NCBI GenBank assembly: GCA_027489895.1
Contig: JAIXZD010000126.1
Span: forward strand, 1 to 10,104
Direction of reading: 5' to 3'
Length of the DNA stretch: 10,104 nucleotides
DNA from: Planctomycetaceae bacterium
GTDB taxonomy: Bacteria > Planctomycetota > Planctomycetia > Planctomycetales > Planctomycetaceae
In this document: positions 1,394 through 10,104 of the stretch, one piece after another
Layout of the letters: each line of letters starts with the position of its first letter
Position numbering within the stretch: position 1 is the stretch's first letter
Made by a program: the position numbers and the translations under genes
Notes under the pieces: model-generated
The model's database searches: none
Seen by the model: the letters and a program-made list of their open reading frames with translations, nothing else
Told to the model about the DNA's origin: nothing

Positions 1394-1591
1394 AGTCCCG
1401 AAAGCCTGCGTTCAGGAAATCGCGCCGGGAAACCTGCGCTCGAACAATTGAGCCCGCCTGTTCCGCCACCAGCCACGCGGCTGAACTCGGCTGCTTCATG
1501 GAGTGTAGCAGAACCTCCCGAGTGGCAGAAAATGGGAAAATGTCAGTTCGGCACCGGGGAGTGCGCGGCGGTCGCCCGGGTTGGTGAGGAG

Positions 1592-1775
1592 GGTTTTTGC
1601 CCACCACCAAGGCACAAAGGCACCAAGGAAAGACAGGGCAGGGGGGCTGGAGCGAATCCGTCGACACACGCGACGAGGGAGTGATCAGGGAGTAATCAGG
1701 GCGAGCCGACCAGACTTCGCACCAGAGCTTGATCTGTCTTTCCTTGGTGCTCTTGGTGTCTTGGTGGTGAAAACC
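1592..1775. repeat. Long imperfect inverted repeat. The ~45-nt arms (1592..1636 and 1734..1775) flank a 97-bp spacer. Each arm carries three tandem CACCAAG(G/A) heptads, so there are six CACCAAG/CTTGGTG units in total.
   Basis: Seen directly. The left arm is gggtttttgcc-CACCACCAAGG-CACAAAGG-CACCAAGG-aaagacag. The reverse complement of the right arm (ctgtctttccttggtgctcttggtgtcttggtggtgaaaacc) is ggtttt-CACCACCAAGA-CACCAAGA-GCACCAAGG-aaagacag. That is roughly 35 of 36 core positions matching, with 3-4 mismatches or indels. It lies in the divergent intergenic region between the FHA gene (start 1393, minus strand) and the GTPase gene. Confidence 0.7.
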
Positions 1776-1880
1776 AAAAGTCCGAAGTGGGGAAACATCA
1801 TCGCGTCTTCGCTCAGCTCCCTCCCGGAATCCGCTGAGTTGGTATCCTGTTCCCAGAGGCTCCGTCCCGACCCGGCTCGC

Positions 1881-3695
1881 GTGAACCGCATTGTGATCGA
1901 ATCCGCTGCTGAACTGTCCCACCTGGCGCTCCTGGGTCGGATCGATGAGTTTTCCGACCGGCTGGCCGCGTGGTGCGAGCATCCCGGCCATTGGCAACCG
2001 GCCCGGGCCGAGCAGTTTTTCTTGCGGCGAGTCCGCGAACGGCTGGACAAGATCCGTGCGCGGATCACGGCGCCGCTGGTCGTCGCCACGTTTGGCGGAA
2101 CCGGGACGGGGAAAAGTTCGCTCGTCAATGCGCTCGTGGGCGACGATGTCACCCGGAGCGGCCGACAACGACCAACCACGACCCGCCCCATTCTGATTGT
2201 CGGTCCCGAAACCGATCTTGCGGCGATCAGTTTTCTCACGGTCGAAGACTGTGAAGTCGTGCAGGCCTCTGGCCTCCTGCTCGACCAGATGGTGCTGCTC
2301 GACTGCCCCGACCCGAACACGAGTGAAACGGATGGAGAGGGCACAAACCTCGATCGTCTTCGGCGCATGCTGCCCCATGTCGATGTCCTGCTGTGTACCG
2401 CCACCCAGGAAACCTACGCGTCGTCGCGGGTGCTGGAAGAGCTGGCGGGCGCGGCCGAGGGCTGTCGGCTCGTCTTCGTGCAGACTCGGGCCCACCTCGA
2501 CAGCGATATTCGCGACGATTGGCGCGATCGGCTGGGCGATTCGTTCGAAGTTCCCGAGATGTTTTTCGTCGACTCCGTCGAAGCGCTCGACGACCACAGG
2601 AACGGTCGTCCTCCCACTGGCGAGTTCGCGCGACTGACGCATCTGCTGACCCATGAACTCGCAGCGACCGAGCGAATTCGGGTGCGGTGGGCGAATGTCG
2701 GCGATCTGGCTTCTCGGGCGATGGGAGATGCGTCGGCCCGACTGGAGCGTGCGGTCCCGCGACTAACGCAACTCGAAGACAAGCTGAATCGGCAGCGCGA
2801 CGAAGTGGCCCGAAGCTGGCTCTCCGAGATCGAGCGTGAACTCGGCGCGAATCGTGGCCTGTGGGAGCGGCGGCTGCTCGCGGGGGTGTCGCGACAGTGG
2901 GGGGCGACGCCGTTCAGCCTGCTGATGAAGTTCACGGGGGGGTTGGGCGGCTGGTTCGCTTCGCTGGCGCTGGCTCGTTCCCGATCCGTCGCACAAATGG
3001 CGCTGGTCGGCGCGACCGAGCTCGCTCGACTCGCGGCGCGGGAGGCGGGCGATCTGGGGGCCGAAGAGAGATTTTTGCTGGCCGCAACCGGGCCGATCGA
3101 CGAGGCCCGCCTGAAGGGATTGCGGCTGGTCGCCCTGGGGTATGCCCGTGATGCCGGTCTGGAGCTGCCCCCTCAACGAGAGTCTTCGACACTGGCGGAA
3201 AGTCGTCCGGTTGTGATGGGCGAACTGGCCGCCCGAACGCGCTCCGCCATCGAGGGCGCCGTGGACGAGACGGCGCGGTCGAGCGGTCGACTGACGCGGT
3301 TCGCCTGCGAGTGTGCCATCATCGGTTATGTGGTTTACGCGCTCGCCAAGCCCGCGAAGAACTTCTTTTACGAGCACCCCTGGCTGGATGCGCCGCTGCT
3401 CAGTTCCGACTACTACATCCACGCCGGGCTGTTCTTCGTGCTTCTGACCGGGCTGCTTGTCGTCTGGATGACGTCTGTTCTGCGGCGCGCGTTGCGCCGC
3501 CGCCTGCCTGCGGCGTTGCGACGTCTGATCGAAACGGGCCGAGAGCCGCTGCACGCCGATCTCGACGCGGCCCGGTCCGCCGCGCAGGAGCAGGTCGACG
3601 CGCTTCTGAAGCTGCGCGGGATGGCCGACGCACTCCGTCCGGTTGCGACCTCTGCGGGACGCCTAGGGCGGCGGATCGCTCAGACCGTCCCGTGA
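1881..3695 (+). CDS. Large dynamin-like (BDLP/YjdA-like) P-loop GTPase with a C-terminal membrane-inserting hairpin. The start is uncertain: in-frame candidates are TTG 1581, GTG 1764/1767, and GTG 1881/1893.
   Basis: The G1 P-loop is VVATFGGTGTGKSSLVNALVG (about nt 2085..2150). The switch-I-like segment is RPTTTRPILIV. The G3-like segment is MVLLDCPDPNT and the G4-like segment is LVFVQTRAHLDS. A long helical middle region follows. Near the C-terminus there are two hydrophobic helices, CECAIIGYVVYALAKPAKNFFYEHPWLDAPLLSSDYYIHAGLFFVLLTGLLVVWMTSVL (about nt 3300..3480), and then an Arg/Ala-rich helix. At ~600-700 aa, with the GTPase at the N-terminus and a paddle near the C-terminus, the architecture mirrors bacterial dynamin-like proteins. 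There is no in-frame ATG in the first 230 codons of the maximal ORF. The maximal ORF's 5' end overlaps the inverted-repeat element, so I favour a downstream GTG start. A start at 1881 places the P-loop ~73 aa from the N-terminus, as in BDLPs. Confidence 0.6.
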   Translation: MNRIVIESAAELSHLALLGRIDEFSDRLAAWCEHPGHWQPARAEQFFLRRVRERLDKIRARITAPLVVATFGGTGTGKSSLVNALVGDDVTRSGRQRPTTTRPILIVGPETDLAAISFLTVEDCEVVQASGLLLDQMVLLDCPDPNTSETDGEGTNLDRLRRMLPHVDVLLCTATQETYASSRVLEELAGAAEGCRLVFVQTRAHLDSDIRDDWRDRLGDSFEVPEMFFVDSVEALDDHRNGRPPTGEFARLTHLLTHELAATERIRVRWANVGDLASRAMGDASARLERAVPRLTQLEDKLNRQRDEVARSWLSEIERELGANRGLWERRLLAGVSRQWGATPFSLLMKFTGGLGGWFASLALARSRSVAQMALVGATELARLAAREAGDLGAEERFLLAATGPIDEARLKGLRLVALGYARDAGLELPPQRESSTLAESRPVVMGELAARTRSAIEGAVDETARSSGRLTRFACECAIIGYVVYALAKPAKNFFYEHPWLDAPLLSSDYYIHAGLFFVLLTGLLVVWMTSVLRRALRRRLPAALRRLIETGREPLHADLDAARSAAQEQVDALLKLRGMADALRPVATSAGRLGRRIAQTVP

Positions 3696-3837: not shown

Positions 3838-3991
3838 CTCTCTTCGCGGAGTTTGGTCGCCCGGAACTTCGCGACGTGACCTCTGTCCTGCGTGGACTTC
3901 CCCGGCGTTGCGAGTCTTGGGAACTCTCACGAGTTCCGCTACGGCAAGATGACCTACCGACGCGATGGACTACGACTGGCGGGGAAACGCT

Positions 3992-4591
3992 TTAGCGCCA
4001 CATTGGGCCGACGCCTGCGACTTCCTGTTCGACCGCCTTGTACGACGTTTTGACGAGTCGAAACCCGAGCGAGCGATACAGTTGCACAGCGGGGGCGTTG
4101 TTGGCCGTCACCTCCAGGAAGGTCGACCGCAGGCCAGCTTCCCGAAAGCCCCACAGCGCTTTGGCGACCAGCAGCCGCCCCAGCCCCAGACCGCGATGTT
4201 CGGGGGCCACGCCCACATTCTGGATCGCACCGATCGACTCCGAGCGAAACAGCCGGTCGACCGTGCCGATCAGGCCCTGAATCGTCGCAGCGTCTTCGTA
4301 GTTCTCATCGCTGTGGAGCTGCGTGATCAACCAGGTCGCCTGCGGCAAAAAGCCTTCGCGACGGGTGATCTCGCTCATCAGCCGCAGGCAGCCTTCGTGC
4401 GTCGAGAGCGAGGGAAAGACATGCGCATCGATTTCGGCGTTGAAGCTGCGGTACTTTGTCCAGGCGTGCCGTTCCAGGCGATCGGGACGCCACGGAGTCC
4501 AGACGTACCCGTCGGGTAGCCGCGGCTCGGGAAGCCGGGCGGTGCGAAAGTCGAGTTCCATGCGGAACCGCTTGTAGTACACCAGCGACAT
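3992..4591 (-). CDS. GNAT-family N-acetyltransferase, ~199 aa. I take the start as the internal ATG at 4591..4589. The track's 346-aa ORF ending at 5032 is over-extended.
   Basis: The sequence MSLVYYKRFRMELDF...IQNVGVAPEHRGLGLGRLLVAKALWGFREAGLRSTFLEVTANNAPAVQLYRSLGFRLV contains the GNAT motif A (Q/R-x-x-G-x-G/A, acetyl-CoA binding) and the motif B region. The upstream 147 codons of the maximal ORF (4592..5032) are Arg/Gly/Ser-rich low complexity with no domain signature. They would also overlap the start of the neighbouring AAA+ gene. Confidence 0.8.
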   Translation of the reverse strand: MSLVYYKRFRMELDFRTARLPEPRLPDGYVWTPWRPDRLERHAWTKYRSFNAEIDAHVFPSLSTHEGCLRLMSEITRREGFLPQATWLITQLHSDENYEDAATIQGLIGTVDRLFRSESIGAIQNVGVAPEHRGLGLGRLLVAKALWGFREAGLRSTFLEVTANNAPAVQLYRSLGFRLVKTSYKAVEQEVAGVGPMWR

Positions 4592-4942
4592 AATGGACGA
4601 CCACCAGGACCAACAGTCAGCGGACGCAGAACAGTCGACCGAACCGCGGATGCGTTCCGTCGCCCCGGTGGCCCCCGGTCGAAACAGACATCTGCCGGCG
4701 CGCAACCGCCCGAGACCACCAAGTGTAGCGCGCCTAAACGCGACGTCAATCACGGCGTGGCGGGACCAGGGAAACAACTCAGTCACAGTGCCCAATTGAC
4801 GGACAAGGCAGGAGATTTGCCCTCGCCGTCGGGCTGGCCGCGTGACGACTTCGCCGCCTTTGACGGTTTCAACCGCCGGGGGGGGATTTCGCCCCCTCAC
4901 GACAGACGCTCTTTTTCCGACCAGAGAGTCGACCGTGCCCCT

Positions 4943-5010: not shown

Positions 5011-6429
5011 ATGCCTGCTCTTCCAACGACACTGGGTGCTCTTCGCGACTCCGGCTACCAATCCCGCTCGGTCAAGCAGGAGATGCGGGACAACCTCATC
5101 CGCAAACTGCGGGCGGGCGAACCGCTGTTCCCGGGGATCGTGGGCTACGAGGAAACCGTCTTCCCCCAGATCGAACAGGCGATTCTCTCGAAGCACGACA
5201 TCCTGTTTCTCGGTCTCCGCGGCCAGGGCAAAACCCGGATGCTGCGAATGCTGGTTAATCTGCTCGATCCCGCGCTGCCTGTGATCGCCGGGTCGGAGAT
5301 CAACGACGACCCGCTCGCTCCGCTCTCGAAGTTCGGCCGCGAACAGGTGGCCCGGCTGGGGGAAGACTGCCCGGTCGCCTGGCTGCCCCCGGCCGACCGC
5401 TACAAGGAAAAGCTGGCGACTCCTGATGTGACGATCGCCGACCTCGTCGGTGAGATCGACCTCATCAAACATGCCGACGGCAAGCATCTCTCCAACGAAG
5501 ATGTGCTGCATTTCGGGCTGATTCCGCGCAGCCATCGCGGCATTTTCTGCATGAATGAACTGCCCGACCTTGGCCCGAAAATTCAGGTCGGCCTGTTCAA
5601 TATTCTCGAAGAGCGCGACATCCAGATTCGCGGGTTCCCGGTCCGACTCGACCTCGATGTCCAGATGGTGTTTAGCGCGAATCCCGAGGATTACACCAAC
5701 CGCGGACGGATCGTCACGCCGCTCAAGGACCGCATTGGCTCGGTCGTCGAGACGCATTACCCGGCGACCCGCGACCTGGGCATTCAGATCATCGAAGAGA
5801 ATGCCTGGACGCAGCGGGATAGCGGCGTCGCCGTCGTCGTGCCCAAGTTCATGAAGGAGATCGTCGAAGAGACCTCGCGGCTGGCGCGGACCAGCCCGCA
5901 CGTCAACCAGGCGTCGGGCGTCAGCGTGCGGATGTCGATCGCCAACTACGAGAACCTGATCTCCGCGGCCGAGCGGCGGGGCATCCGTCAGGGGGAAGAG
6001 ACCGTCGTGCCGCGGGTCAGCGACCTCGCGGCCCTCCTGGCGAGCTCACGCGGCAAGCTCGAATTGAACATGACCGAAGAAGTCGGCCAGGAAGACCGCC
6101 TGATCGAACGGATCATCGGCGAAGCGGTCAAAAATCTGTTCGATGCGAAGTTCAAGCCGAACCAGTTCAAAAGCGTGATCGAGCATTTTGAAACCGATAA
6201 GACGTTGTCGCTGGGCGACGCGCTCTCGACCGCCGATGTCGTCTCGCGACTGGGCGAGATTCGCGACTTCCGCAAGCAGATCGACCTGGCGGCCCGCGAG
6301 ATTGCCGGTGATCTGCCCGCGAGCGCTGCCCAGGTGGCCTGCGTGGGAGAGTTCATCCTCGAGGCGCTGCACTGCCACAATCGGCTGAACAAGCAGTCGC
6401 GGGGCGGCCAGGCGACGTTCCGCCGGTAG
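5011..6429 (+). CDS. AAA+ ATPase of the Mg-chelatase ChlI/BchI (MoxR-like) family, with a ~120-aa C-terminal extension.
   Basis: The Walker A motif is DILFLGLRGQGKTRMLRML. The Walker B motif is GIFCMNELPDL. The stretch VGLFNILEERDIQIRGFPVRLDLDVQMVFSANPED is collinear with BchI [37 protein letters not shown]. The N-terminal PGIVGYEETVFPQIEQAIL resembles ChlI's IVGQE.MK.ALLL. The sensor-2 region is present. ATG start at 5011. Confidence 0.8.
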   Translation: MPALPTTLGALRDSGYQSRSVKQEMRDNLIRKLRAGEPLFPGIVGYEETVFPQIEQAILSKHDILFLGLRGQGKTRMLRMLVNLLDPALPVIAGSEINDDPLAPLSKFGREQVARLGEDCPVAWLPPADRYKEKLATPDVTIADLVGEIDLIKHADGKHLSNEDVLHFGLIPRSHRGIFCMNELPDLGPKIQVGLFNILEERDIQIRGFPVRLDLDVQMVFSANPEDYTNRGRIVTPLKDRIGSVVETHYPATRDLGIQIIEENAWTQRDSGVAVVVPKFMKEIVEETSRLARTSPHVNQASGVSVRMSIANYENLISAAERRGIRQGEETVVPRVSDLAALLASSRGKLELNMTEEVGQEDRLIERIIGEAVKNLFDAKFKPNQFKSVIEHFETDKTLSLGDALSTADVVSRLGEIRDFRKQIDLAAREIAGDLPASAAQVACVGEFILEALHCHNRLNKQSRGGQATFRR

Positions 6430-6460
6430 GTGAGGGTGCGCTGGAGGAGCCGCGGTGCGG

Positions 6461-6479
6461 GGGAAGCGTCACCGCTTCC
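6461..6479 (+). terminator. Small GC hairpin 32 nt downstream of the AAA+ stop codon. Candidate terminator or attenuator ahead of the P-type ATPase gene.
   Basis: GGGAAGCG-tcac-CGCTTCC gives a 7-bp stem with a 4-nt loop. No U-tract. Confidence 0.25.
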
Positions 6480-6620
6480 GCTACAGGCGTTTGGCTGGGG
6501 GGAGGCGTCGGGGCTGAATTCGCTGGCGGAGGCTGGTGGGCAGGGGGCACACTGGGAGTTTGCCGGTCTGCCGATTCAGTCCGCCCTGGTGGGCTGTGAC
6601 GACCCTGCGTTTGAGTTGCG

Positions 6621-9600
6621 ATGCATTACATTCCCGATTCCGCCCGAGCACTTCTGGAAGGCAGTGCGGACGCGTCCTCGCGAACCGAGGCCGAGGGGAA
6701 CTTTCATCTGCGGTCGGCCCCGATCTATCTGCTGACCTTGCTGGTGGGCGGATTGCTGGCGACTGATCTCGTTGCGACGGCGCTAAACTCGGATCAGGCG
6801 GGAAGCAACTCGGGCTGGAGCACGACGTTCTGGGGGATTCGCTGGGCGGTCTGGGCGGCGGTGATTGGCGGCAGCCGGATTCTGGGGCAGACCGTTGACG
6901 GGCTGCTGTCGGGTCGGGTTGGAGCAGATCTGGCACTGACGATCGCCTGCGTCGCGGCGATTCTCGTGGGCGAACACCAGACGGCGGCCCTCGTCGTGCT
7001 GATCGCGTTGTTTGGCGAGTGCCTCGAGGGTTACACGGTCGATCGGGCCGGGCGAACGATTCGCAAACTCTGGCGCAACACGCCCGAGATGGTGCATGTG
7101 GTTCGCGGGGGGAAGGAGCTGGATGTTCCGGCGGCTGAGGTGACGGTCGGCGAAGTGTTGATTGTTCGTCCGGGAGAACGAATTCCCGTGGATGGACTGG
7201 TGCAATCGGGGCAGTCGGCTGTCGACGAAAGCAGCCTGAGCGGGGAAAGTCTGCCGCTGGAGAAACGGACGGGCGATCGTGTCTCGGCCGGAACGCGCAA
7301 CCAGTTTGGGTGGCTCACCCTTTCCGCAGAACGCGTGGGCGAGGCGACGACTTTTGCGCAACTGGTGACGCTGGTTACCGAGGCAGGGGCACGGAAAACC
7401 GGGTTGGAACGGGAAGCCGATCGCCTGGCGCGGTACTTTCTGCCTGCGGTCTTGCTGGCGGCCGGACTGACGCTGCTGGGTTGGCGGTGGTCGACGGGCG
7501 AATGGCAGCGGGGCGTTCTGCCGGCGTTGTCGGTGCTGGTGGTGGCGTGCCCGTGTGCGCTCACTTTGGCGACGCCGAGCGCGGTCGTGGCGGCGCTGGC
7601 GTGGCTGGCGCGACGGGGCGTGGTGGTGAAGGGGACGCAGGCGCTGGAACGACTGGCAGGAGTGGACCTCGTCGCCCTCGACAAGACCGGAACATTGACC
7701 ACGGGCGACCTGACACTCGTCACGACGCAACCTCTGGCCGGGCTGACTGGTTCAGAACTGCTGCGGTTGGTGGCCGCGGCCGAGCGGCCGAGCGAACATC
7801 CGCTGGCCAGGGCGCTCGTTCGGGCTGCCGACGAAGCCGGCGTTGTCGTGCCCCGGTGTACCGCGTTTCAGGCGATTCCCGGGCGGGGGGTACGGGCGGC
7901 GATTGATCTGGTCGACCTGCCGGCCGACCTGCGTCGGATGGTGTCCGGGGTTTCGGCTCAGCCCCACATTCTCGTGGGGACGCTCGCCTGGCTGGAGTCG
8001 CAAGGGGCCATGGCCCGCGATAGCAACCGGTTTCTTTTGGAAGAGCTGGCAGCGCGGGGTGAGGTGCCGTTGGGCGTCGCCCTGGTCTGGAATGAGGACG
8101 ATGCGGACGGGTCGGAGGTGGCGGGCGGTGCCCCGGTGATCCGCTTCCAGACTGCAGTTGCTGCGGGCGAATCTGGGACCGGATTGCCAACGGAGATAGC
8201 GTCGGGCGGACAGTGGCTGGGGCTGCTGGGACTGCGGGACGTGCTGCGCAGTTCGTCGGTCAGCGCGCTGGACGAGCTTCGCGAGTTGGGGCTGGTCGAT
8301 CTGGTGATGCTGTCCGGAGACCGCGAGGCGACGGCCGTGCGGATGGCGCGTGAGTCGGGGTTGATTCGCGAGACGGGCGCTGGGCGTGTCGTCGCCGAAC
8401 TGTCTCCTGCGGACAAAGCGCGATGGGTGACCGAGGCGCAGGCCGGTGGGCGAAAAGTGCTCATGGTGGGCGATGGGGTGAATGACGGTCCGGCGCTTGC
8501 CTCGGCGGAGGTCGGGGTGGCCGTCGCTCGTCCCGGAGCCACCGGCTCGCTCGCCGCGGAAGCTGGGGACATCGTGCTATTGGGTGATCCCATGGCGACG
8601 TTGCCGGGCCTGGTGCGGCTCTCGCGATCGCTGGTGGCTGTCATCCGGCAAGGCATCTACCTGTTTGCATTTGGGTTCAACGGGCTGGGAGTGTTGCTCT
8701 CGGCGGTAGGCTGGCTCAACCCGGTGGGCGGGGCGCTGTTTCACGAGGTGGCGTCGCTCGCGGTGATGGTCAATGCGCTCCGCCTGTTGTGGGTGGATGA
8801 CTGGCGGACGACCGCTTGGGGGCGGGGATTCGTCGCGACGAATCGCTGGCTGGACCGGGCGGCCGAACGCCTGGCTCCGAGTCGGATCGTCACGGCCCTG
8901 GCGAGCCAGGCGGGACGAGTCGGGCAGGTCGCGCTGGCGGGACTGGTCGCGGGCTGGCTCTGCTCGAACATCGTGTTTTTGCGGTCGGACGAGCAGGCGG
9001 TGATTCTGCGAAATGGACGATTTCGCGAGGTCGCGCAGGATGGCTGGCGGTGGGCTTGGCCGCGTCCCTTTGAGACGGTGATCAGGCTGCGTCCGGGAGA
9101 ACTGAGGAAGGTGACGATTGGGCCGGACAGCCCGACTCCCGCTCGTCTTCCAGGGGCCGATGCGCCGGTGATTGAATGGCAGGCCGAACATGGCGACGAG
9201 GAAGGCCTCGTGGCGGATGACCGACTGCTATTGGTCGCCGATGAAGTGGCCCTCGAACTGACGGCGGAAGTTCAATACCGCATTCGTGACGTGCGGGCGT
9301 TTGCCCTCGCCACGGCTGATGCCGAGCGCTCGATCCGCCTGTTGACCGAATCGCAACTGCGGGCACGCGTGGCGCGGCTGGCACTCGATGAACTGTTGAC
9401 CTCGGCGCGCGAGAGTTTGTCCCGCGCGACGCGTGAAGCGGTGCAGCAGGCGGCGGATAGTTCGGGGCTGGGCGTCGAGGTGGTGGAGGTCTGCCTGCTC
9501 GATGTGCATCCGCCCACGCCGGTCGTCCCCGCCTATCGCGATGTGGCCAACGCCCTCGAAGAAGAGCAGCAACTGAAGAACGCTGGGGAAGTCGAATACA

Positions 9601-10091
9601 CGCGGCAGATTCTGGCGGCCACGGGCGAACCGGGGTTGGCTCTGCTGGCAGGGGAACCGGTCGATCAACCGCTCGCCGAATCGGTCTGGGAGCGGCTCTC
9701 CGCCCGAGATGCGGCGGCACCGCTAGCGGGTCAGGCGGCGGTGTTGCTGGAAGCGGCGGAGGGACAGCGCATCGAGCGACGATCTCTGGCTGAGATCGAA
9801 GCAGCGCGGTGGAAGGCGCTCGCGACCGTGCTGCCCACGGGTCGGCCGCTCGTGGCGCTGGAACAGTTCTGGACGGCGATGGAACAAAGCCTCGCCGACC
9901 GTCCGCTGGTGGCGATCGACCCGGTGCTGGGGGGGCGACGTCAACTGCTGTTCGTCAATCCGCCCGCACCACCCGTCTTGAGCAGCGAAGCTCAAGACGC
10001 TGCCCGCGAGGCCGCGCGGGAGGCCCAGGAACAGCGCGACCAGGCGCCGTTTCTACGAAGAGAACCGGGGACAAGTTCCAACCCGCAATAG
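6621..10091 (+). CDS. Fusion protein. The N-terminal ~720 aa are a CPC-type P1B heavy-metal-translocating P-type ATPase with no N-terminal HMA metal-binding domain. The C-terminal ~430 aa carry an extra TM helix, an HflK/HflC-like SPFH (band-7/stomatin/prohibitin) domain, and an Ala/Glu/Arg-rich coiled-coil tail.
   Basis: P-type ATPase motifs: actuator [10 protein letters not shown] (TGES-like); TM6 [13 protein letters not shown] (CPC); phosphorylation site DKTGTLT (about nt 7680..7700); N-domain SEHPLARAL (HP); hinge [13 protein letters not shown] (about nt 8470..8505); eight predicted TM helices; terminal [19 protein letters not shown] (about nt 8730..8790). The frame then continues with no stop into a hydrophobic anchor, [21 protein letters not shown]. 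The SPFH part follows: [31 protein letters not shown] ... [19 protein letters not shown] ... [23 protein letters not shown] ... [35 protein letters not shown]. This is collinear with E. coli HflC/HflK (ITLRFGKV...PGLHFKIPFIE...DSYIKWRISD...LKRKFSDRLRSEIG...LGIEVVDVRIKQINLPTEVSEAIYNRMRAERE). Confidence 0.85.
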
Positions 10092-10104
10092 GTCGACAGC
10101 GCGA

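Follow-up and report, generated by a model that had tools for sequence, protein, structure and literature searches.

A conserved planctomycete P1B-type ATPase fused in frame to an HflK-type SPFH subunit

What might a heavy-metal pump gain from being joined, within a single polypeptide, to a building block of a membrane scaffold? The question is raised by a gene in a 10,104-nucleotide (nt) stretch of DNA (hereafter the window; Planctomycetaceae bacterium GCA_027489895.1, contig JAIXZD010000126.1, forward strand). Here, a lone ATG-initiated open reading frame (ORF) at nt 6621..10091 on the + strand comprises 1156 codons plus stop, and its translation of 1156 amino acids (aa) is free of internal stops. 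A first-pass annotation of the sequence had read this ORF as a complete CPC-type P1B ATPase joined in frame to an SPFH domain of the HflK/HflC type with its own transmembrane (TM) anchor, while allowing that two neighbouring genes might have been merged by a frameshift or by the loss of a stop codon.

The fusion is evident from the ORF itself and from family profiles. Hidden Markov model (HMM) searches of the 1156-aa protein—the check that the annotation had proposed—found all three Pfam domains expected of a pump joined to an SPFH protein, each far above its gathering cutoff: E1-E2_ATPase (PF00122; aa 154–332, 175 bits), Hydrolase (PF00702; aa 348–629, 84 bits), and Band_7 (PF01145; aa 788–987, 71–74 bits against a cutoff of 23.6). 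The protein thus comprises a CPC-type P1B ATPase (aa 1–723), a cytoplasmic linker of 45 aa, a ninth TM helix (TM9; aa 769–787), the Band_7/SPFH domain (aa 788–987), and a helical tail. The borders agree to within a few bases with those of the first-pass annotation: the pump ends in ...VMVNALRLL at aa 723, nt 8789 (first placed at about nt 8790); the extra anchor computes to nt 8925–8981 (about 8928..8985); and Band_7 spans nt 8982–9581 (about 8990..9620), with the tail running to nt 10088. The start codon at nt 6621 is supported by the residues M1, H2, Y3, and P5, which are present without exception across 50 aligned homologues.

Examination of an independent assembly bears directly on the junction. 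A protein 98% identical to that of the window and likewise 1156 aa long (P0023) is encoded on a 34.5 kb contig (L084) from a separate ENA metagenome assembly. This contig matches the window at 97.0% nt identity across all 10,104 nt and, over the junction itself (nt 8700–9100), at 97.3% with no gap. Synonymous codon differences between the two outnumber non-synonymous ones by 65:5 in the pump and 48:14 in the SPFH domain and tail (3:3 in the linker and TM9), a pattern that indicates purifying selection on both halves, strongest in the pump half.

The architecture recurs far beyond these two near-identical sequences. A scan of species-representative genomes yielded 80 loci, 76 of them labelled Planctomycetota. 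At 52 loci the whole fusion is an unbroken ORF of 1074–1215 aa, 42%–47% identical to that of the window, and each gives one tblastn alignment running from query residue 1 to about residue 1115. PF00122, PF00702, and PF01145 occur together in 120/120 full-length database matches listed. An exhaustive profile search of 1.84 billion representatives clustered at 50% identity returned 62 proteins of at least 950 aa among its best 150 matches, and a Pfam scan of eight of these 62 found the three domains in every one.

The segment between pump and anchor (aa 724–768, nt 8790..8924, +) is conserved in its own right. It carries the pattern W-[F]-[E]-[R]-W ... G734 ... S752 P753, in which W724, F725, G734, and S752 are present in at least 90% of aligned sequences and P753 is invariant, and two helices are predicted within it (aa 732–750 and 753–762 in a full-length AlphaFold2 model). 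Helix M6 and the SPFH domain are separated by 67 aa (M6 end to SPFH start; interquartile range 67–67, 143 proteins). As both its sequence and its length are conserved, the linker is not read-through junk. The fusion is hence a real, conserved planctomycete gene and not an artefact; the frameshift or lost-stop alternative is refuted by the junction in L084, the 52 intact ORFs, and the 120 three-domain proteins.

The pump half possesses what identifies a P1B-type ATPase: the catalytic motifs, a CPx motif in M4, a family HMM score above cutoff (482 bits against 346 for the P1B heavy-metal ATPase profile TIGR01525), and an eight-helix fold. The short N-terminus, which bears the invariant MHYxPE, and helices MA, MB, M1, and M2 occupy nt 6621..7040 (+), as judged from hydropathy and invariant residues; hydropathy peaks at aa 37–55, 100–118, and 122–140, together with an invariant Gly–Gly kink (G83 G84) in MB, give the standard set of eight helices for the pump. 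The actuator domain with M3 and M4 follows at nt 7080..7616 (+; Pfam E1-E2_ATPase and motif conservation), with the window showing SGES at aa 207–210 where 92% of relatives have TGES. The ion-site motif CPC in M4 (C310 P311 C312; nt 7548..7556, +) has residues that are invariant or 98% conserved, and CPC was present in all 120 full-length matches listed. The phosphorylation and nucleotide-binding domains at nt 7662..8507 (+; Pfam Hydrolase and conservation) contain DKTGT (aa 354–358; nt 7680–7694, +), SEHP, and GDGVND (GDGxND; aa 617–622), with DKTGT and GDGxND 100% conserved in relatives. An insertion within these domains (aa 495–525) is modelled with low confidence (predicted local distance difference test, pLDDT, <50). 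Helices M5 and M6 (nt 8631..8789, +) carry the invariant N687 and the conserved F-H-E-x-x-S (H708, E709, S712; F-H-E-V-A-S in the window), respectively, before the canonical pump end ...NALRLL. The full-length model (mean pLDDT 77.7) superimposes on complete P1B pumps, best on ZntA (TM-score 0.87, root-mean-square deviation 3.8 Å) and also on CopA (0.81–0.82) and the P1B-4 pump 7qbz (0.81).

No classical P1B subgroup accommodates this pump. P1B-1 pumps (Cu+, CopA type) have CPC, Y-N in M5, and MxxSS in M6. The fused pump shares CPC and all the catalytic motifs with CopA (3rfu); however, its M5 reads F-N (most often M-N in relatives), MxxSS is absent, and its score of 357 bits with the Cu-type profile TIGR01511 lies under the cutoff of 397. 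The Cd-type profile TIGR01512 is, by contrast, passed with 405 bits against 313.5. P1B-2 pumps combine CPC with a Lys in M5 and an Asp in M6, K693 and D714 in ZntA (PMC8880997); ZntA (4umv/4umw) has CPC and the catalytic motifs in common with the fused pump, which nevertheless lacks this counter-ion pair. P1B-4 pumps have SPC in M4 and HEGxT in M6, and the M6 His of one of them, sCoaT, serves as an internal counter-ion (PMC8880997). Likeness to this subgroup (sCoaT 7qbz; CtpD, PfeT) extends to the eight helices, the M6 His–Glu, and the lack of a classical N-terminal metal-binding domain, but the fused pump has CPC instead of SPC, and its H-E-x-x-S or H-Q-x-x-S is without the Gly and Thr of HEGxT. 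P1B-4 and the other P1B pumps compared also stop after M6, where the fusion continues. The M6 pair is His–Glu in the clade of the window and His–Gln in distant fused clades. Taken together, CPC in M4 with His–Glu or His–Gln in M6 marks, on the evidence of these motifs, a distinct group of pumps outside the classical P1B subgroups.

As judged from its conserved motifs and its modelled fold, the pump half looks like an active transition-metal exporter. A divalent substrate (Zn/Cd/Co/Fe-like) is more likely than Cu+, given CPC with the M6 His–Glu, the missing N-terminal metal-binding domain (no CxxC is present in the first 100 aa), and the Cd-type and Cu-type profile scores on opposite sides of their cutoffs. 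A riboswitch was sought as a further clue to the metal, and an Rfam search found no RNA element at E ≤ 1 anywhere in the window. The conservation of MHYxPE at the extreme N terminus is unusually strong for a pump without a classical metal-binding domain; this start may be a metal-binding or regulatory peptide, and it is missing from a distant fused clade of about 1000 aa.

The C-terminal part was confirmed as SPFH, yet describing it as an SPFH domain proved too narrow. Its best sequence match in the PDB is E. coli HflK (E = 2e-13), with fusion residues 764–812 (TM9 and the first SPFH strands) aligned to HflK residues 77–125, a stretch that covers the HflK anchor and the beginning of its SPFH domain. 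TM9 (nt 8925..8981, +; hydropathy 1.76) is thus the counterpart of the single TM anchor of HflK, and the pump and linker in effect take the place of the cytoplasmic N-terminal tail of HflK. The SPFH/Band_7 domain (nt 8982..9581, +) is supported by Pfam, by fold, and by confident modelling (pLDDT 82–92 in the full-length model, outside a low-confidence loop at aa 837–862). In a separate model of the C-terminal 457 aa, the SPFH core exceeds a pLDDT of 90, and the best Foldseek matches of this model were HflK chains of HflK/C–FtsH cages (9cz2, 7vhq; E about 1e-17), followed by stomatin, erlin, prohibitin, and flotillin cages, all at a probability of 1.00.

The remaining region, an HflK-type coiled-coil and C-terminal ('hat'-type) tail at nt 9582..10088 (+), was assigned by hhalign and from predicted helices (aa 970–1009, 1037–1068, and 1075–1091). 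Alignment of the fused part to the free HflK-like paralogue found in relatives gave a probability of 100% (E = 4e-44) over template positions 35–349 of 364, beginning at the TM anchor and stopping just short of the C-terminus, and the sole large difference was a family-specific insertion of about 35 aa in the coiled coil of the fused form (aa ~1003–1037; nt ~9627–9731, +). A conserved ...L(T/V)I(L/I)DP..GRR.L... segment also lies in the tail (within nt 9582..10088, +); in it, D1100 never varies and P1101 is shared by at least 90% of sequences. Of the NCBIfam profiles, that for hflK (TIGR01933) fits the tail best; it matches profile positions 4–186 of 261 with 98–102 bits, below its cutoff of 159.4, and PRK10930 gave 54–59 bits against 660. 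The alignments thus describe an essentially complete HflK-type subunit minus the N-terminal cytoplasmic tail, HflK-like by architecture and not an equivalog-level HflK.

P1B pumps end in the cytoplasm. A ninth helix added to the eight of the pump would place the SPFH domain, coiled coils, and C-terminal segment in the periplasm, as in HflK. The predicted arrangement accordingly resembles that of the HflK/HflC–FtsH complex of E. coli (7vhp, 7wi3, 9cz2), in which one N-terminal TM anchor is followed by a periplasmic SPFH domain, coiled coils, and a C-terminal segment. The two differ in that the cytoplasmic tail of about 76 residues in E. coli HflK is replaced in the fusion by a 723-aa P1B pump and linker, and in that the fused form scores below the hflK cutoff and carries the coiled-coil insertion. 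The insertion includes a conserved D-W-x-L-x-D-x-L-W, in which at least 90% of sequences keep W1023; it might serve as a contact site peculiar to the fused form.

The genes directly downstream of the fusion in its relatives strengthen the likeness to HflK/C. Two further Band_7 genes lie directly 3′ of the fusion at 37 of the 64 loci with enough downstream sequence and, among the 80 loci examined, at 42 of the 76 scorable ones. The first encodes an HflC-like protein, which with 171–181 bits exceeds the hflC equivalog cutoff of 134 (TIGR01932); the second encodes an HflK-like protein of 119–141 bits, compared with 159 for hflK. Such relatives encode HflC-like and HflK-like partners in the same operon as the fusion, with three SPFH paralogues, compared with two in E. 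coli, in the order fusion–hflC–hflK. The same three-gene module is found in the complete genome of the cultured Symmachiella dynata and in the distant fused clades of about 1000 aa and 1301 aa; in L086, neighbouring genes of the module overlap or leave a gap of 3 bases. At the S. dynata locus, where the two downstream Band_7 genes span nt 13664–14824 and 14821–15780 of L085 (CP036270.1), a 103-aa ORF without a Pfam match (nt 13327–13638) lies between the fusion and the hflC-like gene. At the locus encoding the 1301-aa fusion (L087), which has a longer N-terminal extension so that E1-E2_ATPase begins at aa 313, the two downstream Band_7 proteins (nt 10131–12114) also match PF28068 (Scy).

In a neighbour-joining tree, the fused SPFH sequences (81), the HflC-like proteins (49), and the HflK-like proteins (45) form three monophyletic groups. 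This clean separation speaks for one old fusion and three distinct paralogues. An independent fusion in the clade of about 1000 aa was considered and rejected, as its members share the junction geometry, CPC, and the M6 His, with only the Glu replaced by Gln. The presence or absence of the downstream partners tracks phylogeny, and the window belongs to a clade of about 24 species-level genomes, including Schlesneria metagenome-assembled genomes, in which all fusions are solo; the chromosome OW818684.1 (L077; 7.8 Mb) is a further solo example.

The most sensible account of these features is that the pump is tied to a periplasmic ring of the HflK/C type, which would serve to cluster the pump or to control its turnover; we consider this scaffold-tethering model, taken as a whole, reasonably probable. 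In E. coli, HflK and HflC form an alternating 24-subunit assembly around FtsH that modulates the degradation of membrane proteins (PMC12048511). By analogy, the HflK-type part of the fusion would build a periplasmic ring or cage like that of HflK/C. The HflC-like and HflK-like proteins encoded just downstream would join this ring in most relatives; in the solo clade of the window, the fused protein would form it alone or with partners from other parts of the genome. Every fused subunit would anchor a single pump at the rim of an SPFH microdomain of the membrane, with the likely benefit that pumps are clustered and stabilised in a defined membrane patch. Should FtsH be recruited as in E. coli, pump turnover would also be coupled to the protease. 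Roles in microdomain localisation, oligomerisation, or quality control had been suggested in the first-pass annotation; they are still the most sensible inferences and are strengthened by the hflC- and hflK-like genes downstream in most relatives.

The closest functional analogue is provided by the stomatin cages (9zd2), which enclose AQP1 and UT-B (PMC12407830) and in which an SPFH oligomer is likewise tied to a specific membrane transport protein. The stomatin association is, however, non-covalent. Stomatin is also anchored by a monotopic hairpin at the cytoplasmic face, in contrast to the TM helix and predicted periplasmic domain of the fusion, and its clients are channels or facilitators, not ATP-driven pumps.

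Several points weigh against the scaffold-tethering model. Assembly into a ring is predicted from homology and operon context, and the tail is modelled at moderate confidence (pLDDT 40–80). The fused SPFH part falls below the hflK equivalog cutoff and contains the coiled-coil insertion; it may therefore assemble unlike canonical HflK. No hflC or hflK gene stands next to the fusion in the lineage of the window (L084, and L088 at 65% identity), which weakens the heteromeric part of the model for this locus. Clustering of all neighbouring ORFs revealed no ftsH nearby, and the predicted metal specificity derives from motifs. Finally, a rough steric estimate suggests that a 24-mer ring as large as that of E. 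coli would be too small to enclose twelve pumps. They would then have to lie outside it or be interspersed with free HflK-like subunits, and such dilution would give the third paralogue a role.

A bolder form of scaffold tethering builds on this dilution. Fused, HflC-like, and free HflK-like subunits would share one ring; the free paralogue would set the number of pumps; and metal would be discharged into, or at the rim of, an enclosed periplasmic chamber and its membrane patch. This we regard as speculative and rather doubtful. If true, a cage studded with pumps would represent a dedicated compartment for the sequestration of metal or for the metallation of exported proteins, and, by Rosetta-stone logic, the unfused P1B pumps of other bacteria would become candidate clients of cages of the HflK/C type.

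A second explanation puts proteolysis first: the HflK-type moiety would act mainly as a degradation handle that brings the pump to FtsH within an HflK/C–FtsH holoenzyme, with pump abundance set after translation by regulated proteolysis and not by clustering or scaffolding. The type of the moiety and the HflC-like and HflK-like partners downstream in relatives suit this idea, as does the binding of FtsH by HflK/C and the resulting modulation of membrane protein degradation (PMC12048511). There is also a precedent among P-type ATPases, given that MgtA and MgtB are degraded by FtsH in Salmonella (PMC10580885). Nevertheless, a pump of 1156 aa would pay a high price for a permanent covalent protease adaptor, the fusion persists in the solo clade without adjacent partners, and—a further difference from HflK/C–FtsH—ftsH is not linked to the fusion locus, so that we deem proteolysis unlikely to be the main purpose of the fusion.

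Somewhat less probable again is a domain that acts in cis, in which the SPFH part serves its own pump or a dimer, with no large cage, and senses the state of the envelope or lipids or gates metal release. About 30 loci, including the clade of the window, have no adjacent partner genes and keep the SPFH part intact, which would be expected of such a domain; so would the coiled-coil insertion and the score under the hflK equivalog cutoff. Isolated SPFH domains can be dimers or trimers according to two reports (PMC3433786, PMC9663324). The complete coiled-coil and C-terminal region is kept and conserved, however, and this region builds the cage wall and cap in other SPFH proteins; an ancestral operon with two more SPFH paralogues would also be hard to explain without a hetero-oligomer.

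A degenerate pump, in which the ATPase half transports no metal and is an ATP-driven or structural cytoplasmic module of an SPFH complex, is highly improbable. It could draw on the absent N-terminal metal-binding domain, on the SGES (for TGES) and MLSGD of the window, and on the unusual combination of CPC with His–Glu/Gln, which matches no classical P1B subgroup. Yet DKTGT, GDGxND, TGES/SGES, CPC, N687, and the M6 His are conserved in more than 100 proteins, purifying selection is strongest in precisely this half (65:5), and the model superimposes on complete P1B pumps. Classical metal-binding domains are, moreover, also lacking from P1B-4 pumps (PMC8880997).

Least credible of all, to a degree that makes it negligible, is the merging of neighbouring pump and hflK-like genes by a frameshift or lost stop in this contig: relatives do have hflK/hflC-like genes adjoining the pump, and some related contigs carry the fusion as two to four gene calls (e.g., L001, L002, and L003), but the breaks in these three sit in the N-terminal half of the pump with the pump–SPFH junction in one frame, the junction is in frame in most broken copies across loci, such copies come mostly from 'MFD...' assemblies with 'contig_' names—to go by the names, indel-prone long-read assemblies—and the unbroken ORF in 52 genomes, the conserved linker sequence and length, and the ungapped junction in a 97%-identical independent assembly with mostly synonymous differences all stand against it.

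Scaffold tethering, as the preferred reading, bears on a wider problem. Cages of SPFH proteins (HflK/C, stomatin, prohibitin, flotillin, and erlin) have recently been solved, whereas the identity of their clients and the way these are handled are largely open. In the present case the gene itself names the client, through an ancient and conserved covalent fusion of an HflK-type subunit to a specific transporter by a tether of fixed length. The logic of gene fusion suggests that P1B pumps are functionally connected to scaffolds of the HflK/C type or to quality control by FtsH, maybe also where the genes are separate. As the fusion is present in culturable planctomycetes with complete genomes, such as Symmachiella dynata, it is directly amenable to work on structure, localisation, and turnover.

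The first-pass annotation had known of no described ion pump fused to an SPFH protein, and this is consistent with the literature search, which, with most subscription journals outside its reach, found no P-type ATPase–SPFH fusion described, a recent P-type ATPase review included. The architecture is nonetheless not rare: a sizeable planctomycete family is already held in RefSeq and UniProt. Neither component is new; it is the natural covalent fusion of scaffold to client, with a conserved operon of three paralogues in a culturable organism, that opens the handling of SPFH clients to direct tests. The S. dynata protein is entered as QDT47166.1 and WP_145423967.1 and in UniProt as A0A517ZJN0, 'P-type Zn(2+) transporter', and JGI uses 'Cu+-exporting ATPase'. 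The SPFH part is missing from all of these names, which ignore the C-terminal third of the protein.

Annotation is complicated further by frameshifted copies. Between one and seven frame changes, most of them in the pump half, interrupt the fused gene in L001, L002, L003, L016, L019, L036, L073, L076, and L082. Relatives of 630–750 aa with only Hydrolase and Band_7 were considered as genuine proteins and rejected, as they are truncations at contig ends and frameshifted copies; frameshifts in some assemblies thus account for spurious 'Hydrolase+Band_7' database proteins. A fused pump–SPFH protein of 1331 aa, 44% identical to that of the window, occurs in a dinoflagellate gene set (P0126; eukprot EP00913, Durusdinium trenchii g8285.t1) and is most likely planctomycete contamination of the dinoflagellate assembly, not a eukaryotic gene.

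Outside the SPFH genes, the neighbourhood of the fusion is variable. Clustering of neighbouring ORFs placed nothing but SPFH genes in more than 10 loci, with no conserved ftsH, metallochaperones, or metal regulators. Genes for an AAA+ protein, a GNAT acetyltransferase, a dynamin-like GTPase, and an FHA-domain protein lie upstream in the window; they are syntenic in the near-identical L084, where a convergent DUF1501 gene follows the fusion. L084 stands in here for the contig of the window itself, for which an exact-protein look-up and scans of metagenome contigs for exact 45-mers and for close relatives gave no match. These upstream genes were rejected as parts of the system, as they have no tblastn match in 83 related loci and are missing even from the 65%-identical L088. 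Between nt 6300 and 10104, no promoter-like or terminator-like sites that would allow separate expression of the SPFH part were found.

The AAA+ gene (nt 5011–6429, +; 472 aa) is on the same strand as the fusion, at a gap of 191 nt, and matches AAA_5, Mg_chelatase, and Sigma54_activat weakly (~26 bits). The GTPase gene (nt 1581–3695, +; start likely near 1839) encodes 618–704 aa with a borderline Dynamin_N match of 26 bits against a cutoff of 27; the FHA-domain gene (nt 911–1393, −; 160 aa) adjoins it on the opposite strand, and an RsgA-like GTPase is encoded further upstream in L084. The GTPase and FHA genes could constitute a small signalling cluster. The GNAT gene (nt 3995–4594, −) matches Acetyltransf_1 with 52 bits and has an equivalent gene call in L084; the overlapping ORF at nt 3965–4519 (+; 184 aa), which has no family match, is probably an antisense shadow ORF of GC-rich sequence. 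GC skew is near zero over the upstream 6 kb of the window and positive throughout the fused gene (0.09–0.27 over nt 6200–10104), with cumulative skew climbing from about nt 6200, probably as a coding-strand composition effect of the fused gene.

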